Source: a virus
Length of the DNA stretch: 53,290 nucleotides
Direction: 5' to 3' (one strand)
UHGV virus genome: UHGV-0119950
Positions 8,566-29,519 of the stretch are shown piece after piece; position 1 is the first letter of the stretch, and each line of letters starts with the position of its first letter. The position numbers were made by a program, and so were the translations under genes. The notes beneath the pieces are model-generated. The model was not told the DNA's origin and did not search any database. It saw only the letters and a program-made list of their open reading frames with translations.

Positions 8566-8954
8566 TTACACGCGAATTTTATACCATCTAGTGTTGTGTT
8601 TTTAAGGATGTCTTCGGCATAAAATTTGAAGTAAACCCTCATCAAAGATGAAAAATACCAAGTATATTCCTTTAAAAAATCCTCATTGAGATTTTCGCTT
8701 TTTGGATAAGAGAAAATCATTCTAATGTCGATTTTTAGAGAAAAATCTGGTTTTTCACTGCCTTTCCTGAACCCTTGAGCGATGGGGCTTGCTGAAACTT
8801 TAATTGATGACATTGATGGATCGCCACCACCGACTTCAAAATCTAAGGCGCCATATACAACCTTGATCGTGCCCTCACCAGGTGTAAGCATGGTTTGATT
8901 GAACTCCACGTTTAGAATCGCAGATTCAACCATGTTGATATCGTTAGGCAACAT
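8562..8954 (-). CDS. Hypothetical 130-aa protein, possible SecB-like chaperone (remote, by-eye similarity)
   Basis: Third gene of the coupled cassette. FSLKIDIRMIFSY and LKEYTWYFSSLMRVYFKFYAEDILKNTTLDGIKF line up with SecB AFLCEVQQGGIFSI and [36 protein letters not shown] (E. coli SecB from memory). AT-rich. Confidence 0.6.
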   Translation of the reverse strand: MLPNDINMVESAILNVEFNQTMLTPGEGTIKVVYGALDFEVGGGDPSMSSIKVSASPIAQGFRKGSEKPDFSLKIDIRMIFSYPKSENLNEDFLKEYTWYFSSLMRVYFKFYAEDILKNTTLDGIKFACN

Positions 8955-9363
8955 TTATCTCATAATCCCTGTTTTGAGGCTTAATGGTAATCTTGATGAC
9001 TGGGCTTGGTTCGTCCATGAAACTATTTAAATTCATAACGTAGTGCTTATGAGCAGGTATAACAGGATGAGAAACATCACATCCATTCTTCAGGATTACT
9101 ACTTTTGCTTCGGCACCTAGAGCGTAGGAAATATCGGAGAGGGTTTTTAGTGTCATGTTCCTAGTTCCATCTAGCAACTGAGAAACATGCGAAGCCGACT
9201 TGCCAAGTTTTTTAGCAAGTTCACGCTTAGTTATACCTGTATCCTGCATAGCTAAAAGGATGTCTTCTGTAGTATTGAACACTAATCGTTCGGAAGCCAT
9301 CTCTCTATCACTAATGTATGGAAAACCAAAAATTTCTTCTGCGAAAGTCTTATCAGTAGTCAT
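8944..9363 (-). CDS. XRE-family HTH protein, 139 aa, candidate antitoxin with C-terminal extension
   Basis: Central HTH ITKRELAKKLGKSASHVSQLLDGTRNMTLKTLSDISYALG. About 45 aa follow the HTH domain. 11-nt overlaps with both neighbours. Confidence 0.8.
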   Translation of the reverse strand: MTTDKTFAEEIFGFPYISDREMASERLVFNTTEDILLAMQDTGITKRELAKKLGKSASHVSQLLDGTRNMTLKTLSDISYALGAEAKVVILKNGCDVSHPVIPAHKHYVMNLNSFMDEPSPVIKITIKPQNRDYEINVA

Positions 9364-9781
9364 CTAAACCTCTCTCGATTCTCTCCCAGTTGTTACAAAC
9401 TTTTTGGACATCAGAATCGCTTAAATCATCAAAATCTTTGTAGATGTAATGACTCATAAAATAAGTCATTGATACTCTCTCCGACTCCCAGTAGTACCCT
9501 CGAATAGGTATCTTCTTTATAGCCCAGAAATTTTTTTTAGGTTTGCCATTGTAAGAAGGCAGTATTCCTTCCTTTCTGACGCTGAGATCTGGAGTTCTTT
9601 TACCTGATGCCAGGCGCTCTATTTGTAGTCTAAGCTTGACCATCATGGCTTTTTGCTTCTTAGCAGGAGTAACACTCAGTATCGCATCAGCTAGAGTTTT
9701 TAGCGCTCCATTACAATGGGTTACAGTGAAGCAAGCGCCCTTAAAAGTATGTTGAACCATCCACTTATCCATAGTTAACAT
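9353..9781 (-). CDS. Hypothetical 142-aa protein, candidate RelE/HigB (Gp49/DUF891-like) toxin
   Basis: The pattern KLRLQIERLASG...FWAIKKIPIRGYYWES...YFMSHYIYKDFDDLSDSDVQKV resembles the HigB/Gp49 layout (…YRxxY…hHaFxKKxxxTPxxDI…). Lies upstream of the HTH gene, the HigBA order. Start codon uncertain (ATG 9781, 9772 or 9760). Confidence 0.6.
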   Translation of the reverse strand: MLTMDKWMVQHTFKGACFTVTHCNGALKTLADAILSVTPAKKQKAMMVKLRLQIERLASGKRTPDLSVRKEGILPSYNGKPKKNFWAIKKIPIRGYYWESERVSMTYFMSHYIYKDFDDLSDSDVQKVCNNWERIERGLDDY

Positions 9782-25426: not shown

Positions 25427-25696
25427 ATGGGAATTGAAATGATTATCGGCCTGGCCGCAGCGGTGATTGCCGCTATCGCTGGTGCTTTCGGTTTCGGCCA
25501 TGCGCGCGGCACCAGCAAAGCGGAAGCCAAAGCAGACAAGCAGCGCACAGAAGAGAACGCCGCAGCAACGGTAGCGGCAGCAGAGCGCCGGGTGGAAGTA
25601 ACGAAAGAGGCCAGTAATGTACAGCAGACTGTTAACCATATGCGTGGCGACGATGTTGATCGCGAGCTGCGCGACAACTGGACCCGCAAGGATTGA
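25427..25696 (+). CDS. i-spanin (Rz-like)
   Basis: 89 aa from the ATG at 25427. N-terminal TM (IIGLAAAVIAAIAGAFGF), then a charged helical region. Follows the endolysin. Confidence 0.75.
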   Translation: MGIEMIIGLAAAVIAAIAGAFGFGHARGTSKAEAKADKQRTEENAAATVAAAERRVEVTKEASNVQQTVNHMRGDDVDRELRDNWTRKD

Positions 25697-25847
25697 GGTA
25701 GTGGACACGGCCTGCGATTGGGTTAAGCCCATCTACGGCACGGCTCACGACTGGGATGTGCTGGACAAGCAGACGAAGCGCGACATCCTGGCGCATAACA
25801 AAACGTGGCAGGCGAACTGCCATAAGAAGCAAGCAATGAGTTTATAA
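25617..25847 (+). CDS. o-spanin (Rz1-like lipoprotein), overlapping the i-spanin in another frame
   Basis: Signal peptide with lipobox MLIASC. Starts inside the i-spanin gene and extends beyond it. Confidence 0.75.
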   Translation: MYSRLLTICVATMLIASCATTGPARIEVVDTACDWVKPIYGTAHDWDVLDKQTKRDILAHNKTWQANCHKKQAMSL

Positions 25848-25905
25848 ATTAAAGATCTTCTACTTGTGTGCCGATTATGTTTCCATTCTTACTGTATGGA
25901 GATGG

Positions 25906-26271
25906 ATGCACATGAAAGTATTACAAACATTAGGCGGTTACCAAGGTGGTCAGGCCGGGATTTTTCAGTACAAAAGGAATAGCGATGGGGTAGTTATTGA
26001 TCCTACCGTCGGTATGAATGCTAATGCGGAAATCATTGAGATTTCTAACGATGATTGGAGTGGGATGATTAATCGGTTAGAAAACATTGGCAAGAAAGTC
26101 GTTGATTTGACGGAGATAAAACAAGAGATCGCAGATGAGCTCGGGATGAATAACACTGAGACTGCCGCCGTGGTTGCTATATTGGAACACGAAGGAACAT
26201 TCGACCATTATGGCGGATTTATCGGTGGCGGGGAGTCAGTTTCAATTCATCTACGTAGGGATGATGACTAA
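25906..26271 (+). CDS. Hypothetical 121-aa protein (AT-rich moron after lysis cassette)
   Basis: ATG at 25906 or 25912 after GGAG. Own terminator downstream. Composition differs from the flanks. Confidence 0.6.
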   Translation: MHMKVLQTLGGYQGGQAGIFQYKRNSDGVVIDPTVGMNANAEIIEISNDDWSGMINRLENIGKKVVDLTEIKQEIADELGMNNTETAAVVAILEHEGTFDHYGGFIGGGESVSIHLRRDDD

Positions 26272-26295
26272 TTCAAGCTGGTTTTAAGGGGACAG

Positions 26296-26318
26296 GCCTC
26301 GAATTCGCGAGGCTTTTT
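26296..26318 (+). terminator. Intrinsic terminator
   Basis: GCCTCG-AATTCG-CGAGGC followed by TTTTT. Confidence 0.8.
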
Positions 26319-26366
26319 ATTGCCATCACCATGGGCAGACCCATCGTAATGGCGAAATCACAGTAT

Positions 26367-26573
26367 TTATCGATATAACCGACCAAGTGCCTTAATGGCT
26401 GCGATTCTAATCTCTATATCATCACTTTGGCTTAATTTGTGTAGTTCCTGGGTAATGTTATCCGCTTGGCATCTACCTTCGCCTAACGCATAGATTGCAG
26501 CAAGTTTGATGTCTTTTGGCTGGGTCATCATCTGCAACAAAAGCATGTTAGCTATTGGTTGCGGCATGCTCAT
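26367..26573 (-). CDS. Small HEAT-repeat-like protein, 68 aa
   Basis: Start at MSMPQPI (SD AAGGGA). KLAAIYALGEG and IRIAAIKALGRL resemble PBS-lyase/HEAT repeat motifs. Confidence 0.5.
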   Translation of the reverse strand: MSMPQPIANMLLLQMMTQPKDIKLAAIYALGEGRCQADNITQELHKLSQSDDIEIRIAAIKALGRLYR

Positions 26574-26687
26574 ATTTATTCCCTTTAATGAGATAAACAC
26601 TGGTACTCACAGACAAGCTGGAAATGTGCTGTTGCGAGTACCTCATCGGTTTAAACGTGCATATACGTTTAACGCATATGCCAGTAT

Positions 26688-27125
26688 TTATGGATTTCCT
26701 AAGATTATCGCGTTATCTATACGATCCCAGCACTCAGTAAAATCAAACACCTTTTTTGCACTCGATACTGAGCCCCAGTGCTCCTTGAGATTCATAGCGT
26801 GGCGGTAAGTGGTTGCGATCGGATAGTCATGGTAGCCTTTTTCGTCAGCCACGATCGCGCGAGTTCTACCTTCGTCAAACCTTGTTATGCCATCGCGAGA
26901 AATGTGCATTATCGATGGGTTTAGCTCTCCGCCGTGCGTCATCCATTCTCTGATAGAAGTCAGTTTGGTGCTTATTGGGTCGTACCCATCCTCTTTGAAT
27001 TGAGCCAAGGCAACTTCTTTTGCCCAAGCACTGTTAACGATAAGAATCACTGCCTTATCGCTTTGATCTGAATTTTCGCAAATATTCCAGATTTTTTTAT
27101 AGGCGGGAGTTACACATCTAATCAT
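26688..27125 (-). CDS. Hypothetical 145-aa protein, possible ParB/Srx-fold (weak)
   Basis: Start at MIRCVTP (SD AGGAAG). PSIMHISRDGITRFDEGRTRAIVA resembles the ParB-like nuclease core (P-x-hydrophobic...DG-x-x-R-x-x-A). Start alternatives at 27158/27167. Confidence 0.55.
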   Translation of the reverse strand: MIRCVTPAYKKIWNICENSDQSDKAVILIVNSAWAKEVALAQFKEDGYDPISTKLTSIREWMTHGGELNPSIMHISRDGITRFDEGRTRAIVADEKGYHDYPIATTYRHAMNLKEHWGSVSSAKKVFDFTECWDRIDNAIILGNP

Positions 27126-27235
27126 TGTTCTTCCTTTTCTATCAGCCACTGGAATCATTATCGTCAATTCACTGAGAAAGCTTAAGCGTATTTCACTTTA
27201 TGGCGACCATCGAATCAAAATAACGGAGTAAAACA

Positions 27236-28222
27236 ATGGCAAAACCGGACTGGGGCGAGCTTCAGCAACGGTTCCTGTCCGACAATGCCGCTACCGGCGT
27301 ATCACCGAAGGATTGGTGTGAAGCGCAGGGACTGAATTACGCAACAGCCCGCCGATACATAAAAAGACCAACTGCGCAAAAACCTGCGCAGAAAAAATTG
27401 CGCACTGCGCAAAAGGAAAAATGCGCAAAAGAGTTGGTGGATGATGACGGTCTTACTGCTCAGCAGCGTTTATTTGTTGCGGAGTACCTGAAGGATAACA
27501 ATGCCACGCAGGCTGCCATTCGTGCCGGGTACAGCAAGAAGACTGCTGAACAAATTGGGTATCAACTTCTTCAGAAAACTTCAGTTGCGCAGGCAATTGC
27601 GCAGCAGCAGAAAGAATCGTTAATGCGCACACTCGGCAGCGCAGACGAGGTGCTTGCGCAGATGTGGCAACTCGCCACTTTCGACGCAAATCAGCTTTCG
27701 CAATATCGTCGTGGCTGCTGCCGCTACTGCTGGGGCTTTGGTCATCAGTATCAGTGGCGTGACGCAGTTGAGTATGAAGAGAAGCGACTCGAAGCGATTG
27801 AACGCAAACGTCGCGAGCCTGAGGACGTGGGCGGATATGGATATGACCATACGCAGGAACCAAATCCTGATTGCCCGCGCTGTAATGGTGATGGCATTGG
27901 TCAGCCGTTCTTTGCCGACACGCGCAAACTGGCACCTGATGCTGCGCTTGCCTATTCCGGCGTTAAGCTCGGCAAGTACGGCGTTGAAATTACCGCGATA
28001 AGCCGCGAACGGATGTTTGAAGCCGTAATGAAGCGCCTCGGCCTGGCAGACAGTGAATTTGCTCAGCGCCTGCAACAATTGGAAATTGAACGACGACAAT
28101 TGGAGGTTGACAAACTTCGATGGGAGATAGCCCTGGATAAAAACCCAGCGGGATTTGAAGAGGATTATCAACTTCAGCCAATAACTCCCGATGAGGAACC
28201 TCCAGATGATCCAATCCTCTAA
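27236..28222 (+). CDS. Terminase small subunit (Terminase_2/P27-type core with long extensions)
   Basis: LTAQQRLFVAEYLKDNNATQAAIRAGYSKKTAEQIGYQLLQKTSVAQAI is the classic TerS HTH core. Immediately upstream of TerL. Confidence 0.88.
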   Translation: MAKPDWGELQQRFLSDNAATGVSPKDWCEAQGLNYATARRYIKRPTAQKPAQKKLRTAQKEKCAKELVDDDGLTAQQRLFVAEYLKDNNATQAAIRAGYSKKTAEQIGYQLLQKTSVAQAIAQQQKESLMRTLGSADEVLAQMWQLATFDANQLSQYRRGCCRYCWGFGHQYQWRDAVEYEEKRLEAIERKRREPEDVGGYGYDHTQEPNPDCPRCNGDGIGQPFFADTRKLAPDAALAYSGVKLGKYGVEITAISRERMFEAVMKRLGLADSEFAQRLQQLEIERRQLEVDKLRWEIALDKNPAGFEEDYQLQPITPDEEPPDDPIL

Positions 28223-29519
28223 TAGCGATGCCGTCAGCCTGACACCGAAACAGGCAAATATTTACGTCTGGGGGTGGCAGCGTTCAGCGCGTTTCAGAGA
28301 TGCTGTATGTGGTCGCCGATTTGGTAAAACATTCCTGGGCAAAGCGGAGATGCGCAGAGCCGCCAGGCTGGCGCAGAAATGGAAAGTCAGTGTAGAGGAT
28401 GAAATCTGGTACTGCGCGCCAACCCAAAAACAGGCAAAGCGTGTTTTCTGGCGGAGGCTGAAACAATCAATACCTCCACACTGGCGGGCATCGAAGCCGA
28501 ACGAGACTGAATTATCGATCACACTCAAAAGCGGCCATATAATGCGATGCGTCGGGTTGAATAACTATGATGATTTGCGTGGTTCTGGCTTGTTTTTCGT
28601 GCTGGTGGATGAATGGGCGGATTGTCCCTATGCAGCGTGGGAGGAAGTATTGCGCCCGATGCTGTCGACATGTCGGTATATCGTAAACGGTGTGCAGTAT
28701 ATAGGCGGGCATGCTCTTCGAATTGGCACACCCAAGGGATTCAACCATTGCTATGATTCATGGCTTGCCGGGCAGGACAACCGAGAACCTGATCATAAAA
28801 GCTGGCTTTATACTTCTGTGGATGGCGGAAATGTCCCGCCTGAAGAGCTTGCAGCTGCTCGCCGGCGAATGGACCCTAGGACATTCAGGCAGGAATATGA
28901 AGCCTCTTTCGAAAACTATCAGGGCGTTGTCTATTACTGCTTTGATCGCCGTAAAAATCATACTGATGAGATCGTTAAACCTGGTGAAGCGCTTCATATT
29001 GGCATGGACTTTAACGTAGGGAAAATGGCGGCAGTGGTATACGTGCTGCGTGATGGACTTCCCCGCGCTGTAGATGAGTTTATGGATATTTTCGATACTC
29101 CCGCAATGATTGAAGCGATTAAGACGCGGTATGCAGAAGGGAAACACACAATCAGTATTTATCCTGATGCTTCGGGGAAAAACCGGAAGTCCAGCAACGC
29201 CAGTGAGTCCGATATTTCACTTCTCTATGATGCCGGATTCTCTGTGCTGGTTAACGACAGCAACCCGGCAGTAAGGGACAGGATAAATGCGGTTAACTCT
29301 ATGTTGTGCAATACCTACGGTGAGCGCAGGATGATGGTTAATACGGTAACCTGCCCGAAATTCACTCAATGCCTTGAGCGACAGGTTTATAACGATAAAG
29401 GTGAGCCTGATAAGAAAGGCGGCTTTGACCACGGCAATGATGGCGGTGGTTATCCAATCGTGTTCCTGTTCCCTGTTAACGCTACAGCGTTCGACATCAC
29501 CCTCGATACGACATTCTGA
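28206..29519 (+). CDS. Terminase large subunit
   Basis: Walker A CGRRFGKT, Walker B FFVLVDEW, C-terminal nuclease-like region. ATG at 28206 follows GAGGA. Confidence 0.9.
   Translation: MIQSSNSDAVSLTPKQANIYVWGWQRSARFRDAVCGRRFGKTFLGKAEMRRAARLAQKWKVSVEDEIWYCAPTQKQAKRVFWRRLKQSIPPHWRASKPNETELSITLKSGHIMRCVGLNNYDDLRGSGLFFVLVDEWADCPYAAWEEVLRPMLSTCRYIVNGVQYIGGHALRIGTPKGFNHCYDSWLAGQDNREPDHKSWLYTSVDGGNVPPEELAAARRRMDPRTFRQEYEASFENYQGVVYYCFDRRKNHTDEIVKPGEALHIGMDFNVGKMAAVVYVLRDGLPRAVDEFMDIFDTPAMIEAIKTRYAEGKHTISIYPDASGKNRKSSNASESDISLLYDAGFSVLVNDSNPAVRDRINAVNSMLCNTYGERRMMVNTVTCPKFTQCLERQVYNDKGEPDKKGGFDHGNDGGGYPIVFLFPVNATAFDITLDTTF

Follow-up and report, generated by a model that had tools for sequence, protein, structure and literature searches.

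Osa, an ATPase and DNase of IncW plasmids, stops the transfer of rival DNA, and to our knowledge Osa-type ParB/Srx proteins are known only as weapons between conjugative plasmids and integrative and conjugative elements (ICEs). Osa, FiwA and ICE1056Fin block the transfer of rival plasmids and of T-DNA at the coupling-protein step, Osa and FiwA inhibiting the docking of substrates on the coupling proteins of type IV secretion systems (T4SS) (PMC5696584). Osa was first described as keeping T-DNA and VirE2 off VirD4 (Cascales 2005, cited in PMC5696584), and two further papers ascribe both ATPase and DNase to a single ParB/Srx active site of Osa, the DNase being inhibited by high ATP (PMC4619093; PMC5512222). 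Stand-alone ParB/Srx domains of the DdrB-like type were predicted to be nucleases that are regulated by nucleoside triphosphates (NTPs), lack sequence specificity and act in genome conflicts (Iyer et al. 2017, PMC5512222). Here we describe a 145-amino-acid (aa) protein, the product of open reading frame (ORF) C, encoded in the virus genome UHGV-0119950; the whole analysed stretch of this genome, 53,290 nucleotides (nt) long, is referred to below as the window.

The best explanation offered here, to which as a whole a probability of about 0.45 may be given, is that the locus is a mosaic cargo module of three independent single-gene cassettes and that C would be an NTP-regulated DNase/NTPase made by the lysogen against rival mobile DNA. 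The parts of it that concern the architecture of the locus and the fold of the protein are very probable; the enzymatic and exclusion role, considered alone, is tentative and falls somewhat short of an even chance. What the analysis shows is that the genes are real, which fold C has, how rare its family is, and that the locus is modular and its place in the genome conserved; when C is expressed, what it catalyses and what it acts on are inferred. It is also the first structural hypothesis for the C family, hitherto without annotation anywhere.

The fold of ORF C and its kinship to Osa

The AlphaFold model of C (pLDDT, the predicted local distance difference test, of 93.9) displays the alpha/beta core of the ParB/Srx superfamily, with two strands followed by the arginine loop, a helix, a further strand and a further helix. 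The phosphate-binding loop of the superfamily, Gly-x-x-Arg, is found at the N-terminus of the core helix, where the residues E85-G86-R87-T88-R89, part of the segment PSIMHISRDGITRFDEGRTRAIVA, stand at the start of helix 87-95 and align with DGVHR of SbnI and DGMTR of Osa. A profile search of the PDB sequences gave the ParB/Srx domain of SbnI as the top match, aligned over DG-x-HR. The preliminary description of this locus had already noticed the ParB/Srx resemblance, and in this respect it stands, the core and the arginine loop both being present; what it had missed is the nearest relative. Osa is the closest to C both among structures and among sequence families: hhalign pairs ITRFDEGRTRAIVADEKGYHDYPIATT of C with AVCFTDGMTRSMWLLAHEVAVFPVLSR of Osa, and the Thr of the GRTR loop, characteristic of the close clade of C, is the residue found in Osa, the remote relatives having GRHR instead.

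Nine of the 17 C-family members match, below its threshold, the profile PF22162 (PFIN, "Plasmid Fertility inhibition factor"), on which Osa of R388 scores 69.5 bits, and no other ParB family was matched by any of the 17. C represents a separate family within the ParB/Srx superfamily, lying outside PFIN by the curated threshold. As to carriage by conjugative plasmids or ICEs, nearly all loci examined turned out to be lambdoid prophages, with one remote homologue on a plasmid. A canonical partition ParB was also considered for C and rejected, since there is no helix-turn-helix, no match to ParBc (PF02195) in the 17 members and no parA; C is a single domain, and its neighbours are terS and a HEAT-repeat gene.

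Scans with the hidden Markov models of Pfam, PHROGs, PADLOC and NCBIfam returned no useful match for C. The family is very rare, unannotated and nearly always borne by prophages: a search of 5.8 billion proteins gave six close clusters, and a profile search of 1.84 billion gave 11 representatives; it occurs in one of 185,579 species-representative genomes and on 13 IMG/VR contigs, and tblastn with C and its remote homologue P0145 returned no significant match in 50,697 deposited phage records. A literature search for prophage-encoded Osa-like or fertility-inhibition proteins yielded nothing relevant. All homologues have 140-154 aa, and the close ones start with MI. Among the 17 sequences G86, R87, R89, P102 and A123 do not vary and D23 and D128 hardly do, and the family has the motif (D/E/Q/N)-G-R-(H/T)-R ... 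G ... P-(V/I)-x-T.

The lysis/terminase junction and its three genes

The close relatives of C are always divergent from the small terminase gene terS, at a distance of 77 or 110 bp, and the TerS encoded beside them belongs to three families (a 328-aa Terminase_2 type, a 200-aa type and a 148-aa Sf6 type). C lies antisense between the lysis and packaging genes in the window and in loci L005 and L003, and so do the remote homologues of L016, L017 and L024. Holin, lysozyme and KilA-N genes lie upstream of the remote member P0141, which is antisense to the late operon; P0144 and P0145, likewise antisense, are found between holin/spanin genes and a PhageMetallopep + DUF2280 (terS-like) pair. In L017 (4777-5400) and L024 (1329-1952) a 207-aa PhageMetallopep gene precedes the DUF2280 gene and is divergent from the C homologue; the two are a recurrent, uncharacterised pair that opens the packaging module.

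Two exceptions to this arrangement were encountered. In L001 (7000-16438) and L002, a 61%-identical C homologue adjoins a truncated Sf6-type TerS of 76 aa. The element concerned also encodes AlpA, PerC and a D5-type primase, a set resembling that of satellites or phage-inducible chromosomal islands, and has a tape-measure gene; it would be either a degenerate prophage or a phage-satellite chimera. The other exception (L047, 6998-7411) is encoded by the 188-kb mobilizable Cupriavidus pauculus plasmid CP082864 directly upstream of a ParB-family gene of a PRTRC system. Its product can be aligned with C over 143 residues at 27% identity (E 3e-4), and it may represent an evolutionary bridge between the prophage C family and the ParB/Srx proteins of plasmids.

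HNH proteins adjoin the terminases of HK97-like phages, and by analogy C might be a packaging accessory of the phage itself, a nuclease or an NTP switch aiding the terminase in the recognition or cutting of pac or cos. The fixed spacer that separates C from terS in three TerS families is consistent with such a role, as is the frequency of ParB-like nuclease domains near phage late genes (PMC5512222). Nevertheless, C is oriented against the late operon, Klebsiella phages whose terS is 86% identical in DNA are devoid of C, and the mosaic joint at the terS ATG is sharp. In addition, a metallopeptidase gene intervenes between the remote C homologues and terS, one homologue is plasmid-borne, and the family is absent from the phage records searched. 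A packaging accessory is thus improbable, and as an explanation of C it was rejected, homologous terS genes existing without C.

The window is a complete lambdoid prophage, in which a Q-type antiterminator, holins, a GH19 endolysin and then spanins, ending at 25847, precede an island of three genes (25912-27125), designated A, B and C (Table 1). Proteins 100% identical to all three island products are present in prophages of Citrobacter koseri and C. sedlakii (strain NBRC 105722 of the latter has an identical C), and for this reason the host is almost certainly Citrobacter. The GC content of 25860-27235 is 0.430, whereas the window as a whole has 0.502, the lysis genes have 0.526 and the terminase genes 0.507; this value is among the lowest 7% for windows of equal size (the minimum elsewhere in the window is 0.351). 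The AT-richness reported in the preliminary description is thus genuine, yet modest.

Comparison with eight Citrobacter prophage loci revealed 96.9-100% nucleotide identity over 25848-27235 and 98.9-100% over the three genes and their intervening spacers. Exactly at the ATG of terS the identity falls, in seven of the eight loci, to 84-88% over the first 465 nt of the gene (in the remaining locus, L033, it is still 96.6%), and beyond these 465 nt it amounts to 80-88%. To the left of the island the identity also drops: the spanins retain 96-98%, the endolysin has 91-92% and the holins have 69%. The Klebsiella phage ST16-OXA48phi5.1 possesses a homologous packaging module, with homology from 27236, the terS ATG, and has other small genes upstream of it; the island is therefore regarded as cargo. 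With a composition unlike that of its flanks, sharp homology boundaries and absence from homologous phages, it displays properties of a moron, and is best described as a discrete mosaic cargo module that related phages can dispense with, which supports the accessory island of the preliminary description. As to its own signals, a terminator follows A and hairpins follow B and C, and just a -10-like hexamer was found upstream of C.

When the island was compared by megablast with the 50,697 phage records and 5,426 E. coli genomes, only a junction element of 37-47 nt was matched, and an Rfam scan of 25500-27500 gave a single match at chance level (RsaH, 23.5 bits against a threshold of 50). The TerL proteins of the Citrobacter prophages are only 36-38% identical to that of the window. 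TerS is 87-96% identical to its counterparts in other Citrobacter prophages, and DNA homology stops at about 28119, some 100 nt before the end of terS, which points to a mosaic joint within the C-terminal part of TerS, the one that binds TerL. A further cargo slot is seen in the C. koseri prophages L006-L010, where a gene for a small heat-shock protein of the HSP20 family lies between the Q antiterminator and the holins (~8920-9390).

Table 1. Features of the lysis/terminase junction in the window (positions of the whole stretch)
Feature	Position	Strand	Size	Description
ORF A	25912-26271	+	119 aa	same strand as the late operon
Intrinsic terminator after A	26294-26322	+		8-bp GC-rich stem (26294-26315), 6-nt loop, TTTTTATT tail; terminator scan
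Conserved hairpin	26322-26353	not assigned	32 nt	just 3' of the B stop codon
ORF B	26367-26573	-	68 aa	two HEAT (PBS-lyase-type) repeats
Hairpin after C	26659-26681	-	10 bp	7 nt past the C stop codon
ORF C	26688-27125	-	145 aa	single-domain ParB/Srx fold, Osa-like
C-terS divergent spacer	27126-27235		110 bp	C ribosome-binding site AAGGAAG; -10-like GATAAT 31 nt upstream of the C ATG; mosaic joint at the right edge
terS (small terminase)	27236-28222		328 aa	right of the island
terL (large terminase)	28191-29519			after terS

The ratio of non-synonymous to synonymous substitution rates (dN/dS) is 0.22 between C and its 92%-identical orthologue in L005, and 0.10 between B and its copy on an IncI1 plasmid; the remaining pairs are more distant, with saturated dS and dN of 0.21-0.28. 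Since they are under purifying selection, have conserved lengths and starts and yield confident models, A, B and C are real genes rather than chance ORFs. Their orientation is as initially described, B and C being opposite to the late operon and A being co-oriented with it.

An ORF of 121 aa had been reported after the spanins. The ORF is indeed present, but its true start is at 25912 rather than at the ATG at 25906, because all 79 aligned homologues start with M-K-V-L-Q and a GGAG is found 9 nt upstream of 25912. In the A protein a beta region at the N-terminus is followed by a winged-helix domain at the C-terminus, in which a three-helix bundle and a beta wing match solved domains of this kind and an invariant LEHEG closes the third helix. 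The model scans listed above produced nothing at useful E-values for A, and tblastn against the phage records gave no significant match. In Klebsiella/Raoultella prophages a 71%-identical homologue, unaccompanied by B or C, separates the spanin genes from a lambda-type Nu1/gpA terminase; more distant homologues, about 35-37% identical, stand isolated in the chromosomes of environmental bacteria and of a planctomycete.

B contains the repeats KLAAIYALGEG and IRIAAIKALGRL, and the HEAT/PBS-lyase-like character attributed to them was borne out by Pfam, where B scores 31.0 bits on HEAT_2 (PF13646) against a gathering cut-off of 27.7 bits, and is marginally under the cut-offs of HEAT and HEAT_EZ. 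In PADLOC-DB 2.0 only weak, generic HEAT-ARM matches were obtained (E 0.003-0.01), and no significant match to B was found by tblastn in the phage records. Copies of B, 74-79% identical over the full 68 aa, are carried by 1,215 plasmid records, 1,201 of them conjugative, and the DNA shared with the plasmids comprises the gene and 50 nt upstream. The plasmid gene encodes 68-69 aa and is annotated as "HEAT repeat domain-containing protein"; a literature search on the function of this IncI1 gene returned nothing relevant. On the inspected E. coli plasmid pEC545_1 (L026, 2297-4944), typed as IncI1/B/O, the copy stands alone, bordered by excA, a surface-exclusion gene, and at its other end by finQ, hok and dqlB.

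It is conceivable that A, B and C form one functional system, in which B would be, for example, an adaptor or inhibitor of C and A a regulator. They are contiguous in every Citrobacter prophage examined, with 100% identity of their proteins, so that the three-gene island of the preliminary description is real as an arrangement; outside Citrobacter, however, each gene occurs alone. B is found by itself on ~1,200 plasmids, A unaccompanied by the other two in Klebsiella prophages and elsewhere, and C with four unrelated downstream genes, namely the HEAT gene here and genes for unrelated proteins of 77, 96 and 143 aa in other contexts. Between the window and the L005 locus, with its orthologue of C, the shared DNA is confined to 26601-27254, which comprises C, the spacer and six terS codons. 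Moreover, each of the three genes has its own stable 3' hairpin. A common system is hence very improbable, and A, B and C are better viewed as three independent single-gene cassettes. An obligate three-gene system was rejected on the grounds that the genes occur independently of each other.

The terminator which the preliminary description had placed after A was recovered by a terminator scan as a stem at 26294-26315 followed by a T-run, with a folding energy of -14.5 kcal/mol (z -2.3). Two lambdoid phages of E. coli, mEp460 and Ayreon, have the sequence 26296-26329 close to their right end, where it is labelled "terminator" in the Ayreon record, and five further phage records match it elsewhere in their sequence. 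The hairpin at 26322-26353 (-23.1 kcal/mol, z -3.2 on the minus strand) has no U-run. The stretch 26311-26362 is matched by unannotated DNA close to the right ends of two unrelated phages, Salmonella phage Oslo and Enterobacter phage CobraSix, as well as by an E. coli chromosome and L016, and 26296-26362 as a whole looks like a common boundary sequence of the lysis/packaging joint. The C transcription unit may end at the hairpin at 26659-26681 (-14.8 kcal/mol, z -3.3; none of 200 shuffled sequences was as stable); L005 has a perfect version of it, CATATGCG-TTAAA-CGCATATG, 3' of the C orthologue despite an unrelated next gene.

Proposed role of C

The C-terS spacer is 99-100% identical among the Citrobacter prophages, and a -10-like hexamer (GATAAT, GATAAT, TAGTAA) is found 30-31 nt from the ATG of C in three otherwise dissimilar spacers. 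In our proposal C would be transcribed from a weak promoter of its own, antisense to the late operon, and would thus be expressed in the lysogen. In lambdoid phages Q-modified polymerase is known to read through terminators, and we infer the same here: after induction, Q-antiterminated late transcription would pass the terminator that follows A, collide with transcription of C and so silence it. The GRTR loop, together with the conserved acidic residues D23 and D128, would bind nucleotide and metal, and C would act as an NTP-regulated, sequence-non-specific DNase/NTPase on foreign DNA during its hand-over to or from a translocation machine. The resident prophage would in this way exclude conjugative plasmids or phages that superinfect or compete with it. 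A theme of conflict between mobile elements, evident from the homologues of B near excA and finQ on IncI1 plasmids and from the remote C homologue next to the PRTRC/ParB gene on the Cupriavidus plasmid, was counted in favour of this proposal.

Several observations nevertheless weigh against it. The best relative of C reaches only 23.4 bits on PFIN, where the cut-off is 27 bits, and it does so over profile positions 72-118 of 118 only; C of the window has no PFIN match at E<=1. The hhalign probability for C and Osa is only 6.8%, over 39 columns, the TM-score of C to Osa is 0.48, and C lacks the 67 N-terminal residues of Osa. One must also bear in mind that ParB/Srx proteins have many roles, including those of a kinase, a cytidine triphosphate (CTP) switch and a sulfinic-acid reductase, and that the fold alone is compatible with more than one chemistry. 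A scan for consensus sigma-70 promoters called none upstream of A, B or C. The number of matches of C in PADLOC is zero; none was obtained for A either, and B drew only the generic ones, which agrees with the initial statement that no known defence factor is recognisable here. Finally, the constant adjacency to terS in close relatives could point to a packaging-related role.

Two other assignments need to be weighed at this point. C might be a non-catalytic or merely nucleotide-binding inhibitor that binds to a DNA translocase or to the adaptor of one, for instance a T4SS coupling protein or the TerS of a rival phage or satellite, so that docking is blocked and the DNA stays uncut. The original description of Osa as a protein that keeps T-DNA and VirE2 from VirD4 (Cascales 2005, cited in PMC5696584) would fit this assignment, as would the invariable presence of terS beside the close relatives and the homologue that adjoins a truncated terS in the company of AlpA, PerC and a primase. 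Invariant or nearly so, the GR(H/T)R loop and the residues D23 and D128 form the pattern of an active site, unlike that of a binding surface, and an inhibitor of this kind seems rather unlikely, if by no means far-fetched.

Alternatively, C might serve the phage against its host, either in counter-defence or in host takeover, for example by degradation of host DNA or hydrolysis of a nucleotide pool or signal. ParB-like domains of phage polyvalent proteins have been proposed to be NTP-sensing DNases of early infection (PMC5512222). Set against this, C resides in the late region in antisense, the classical position of lysogenic conversion genes, away from the early and anti-defence clusters, and shows no link to a virion protein; a host-directed function accordingly has little probability.

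A bolder extension of the exclusion role would be that C founds a prophage-specific branch of the Osa lineage, a phage "fertility inhibitor" acting on a T4SS coupling protein or on the terminase of a rival phage or satellite, and that the island with its IncI1-derived HEAT gene constitutes an undescribed phage-against-plasmid module. This is speculative and is considered unlikely. If phages do deploy a shortened Osa relative from a fixed cargo slot, the chemistry of these proteins would extend to conflicts between phages and plasmids or between phages, and C would become a compact 145-aa candidate inhibitor of plasmid transfer. Should C have no conflict phenotype, the region would serve as a well-documented example of a moron hotspot. 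The analysis further shows that prophages share in the exchange of a tiny HEAT protein conserved on ~1,200 IncI1 resistance plasmids.

Comparison with described systems

In its place in the genome and its organization the island resembles the classical lambdoid morons of the Rz/nu1 junction, such as bor of lambda: both occupy the same hotspot, are oriented against late transcription, have a lower GC content and a terminator of their own, and are variably present. The products, however, are unrelated: that of bor is a lipoprotein, whereas those of the island are predicted to be cytoplasmic, namely a ParB/Srx protein, a HEAT mini-protein and a winged-helix protein. B and the IncI1 HEAT gene are alike over their full length and in the adjoining 50 nt of upstream DNA, and differ in that B is carried by a prophage and the other copy by a conjugative plasmid. 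With the DdrB-like and other stand-alone phage ParB/Srx DNase/NTPase domains (PMC5512222), as well as with GmrS, sulfiredoxin and SerK/SbnI, C has in common the superfamily and the conserved active-site arginine. The closest described proteins remain Osa, FiwA and ICE1056Fin (PF22162; PDB 4ovb, 4o7k), from which C differs in length (145 aa as against 189 aa for Osa) and in a sequence score below the family threshold; they reside on conjugative plasmids and ICEs, whereas C is found at the lysis/terS junction of a prophage.

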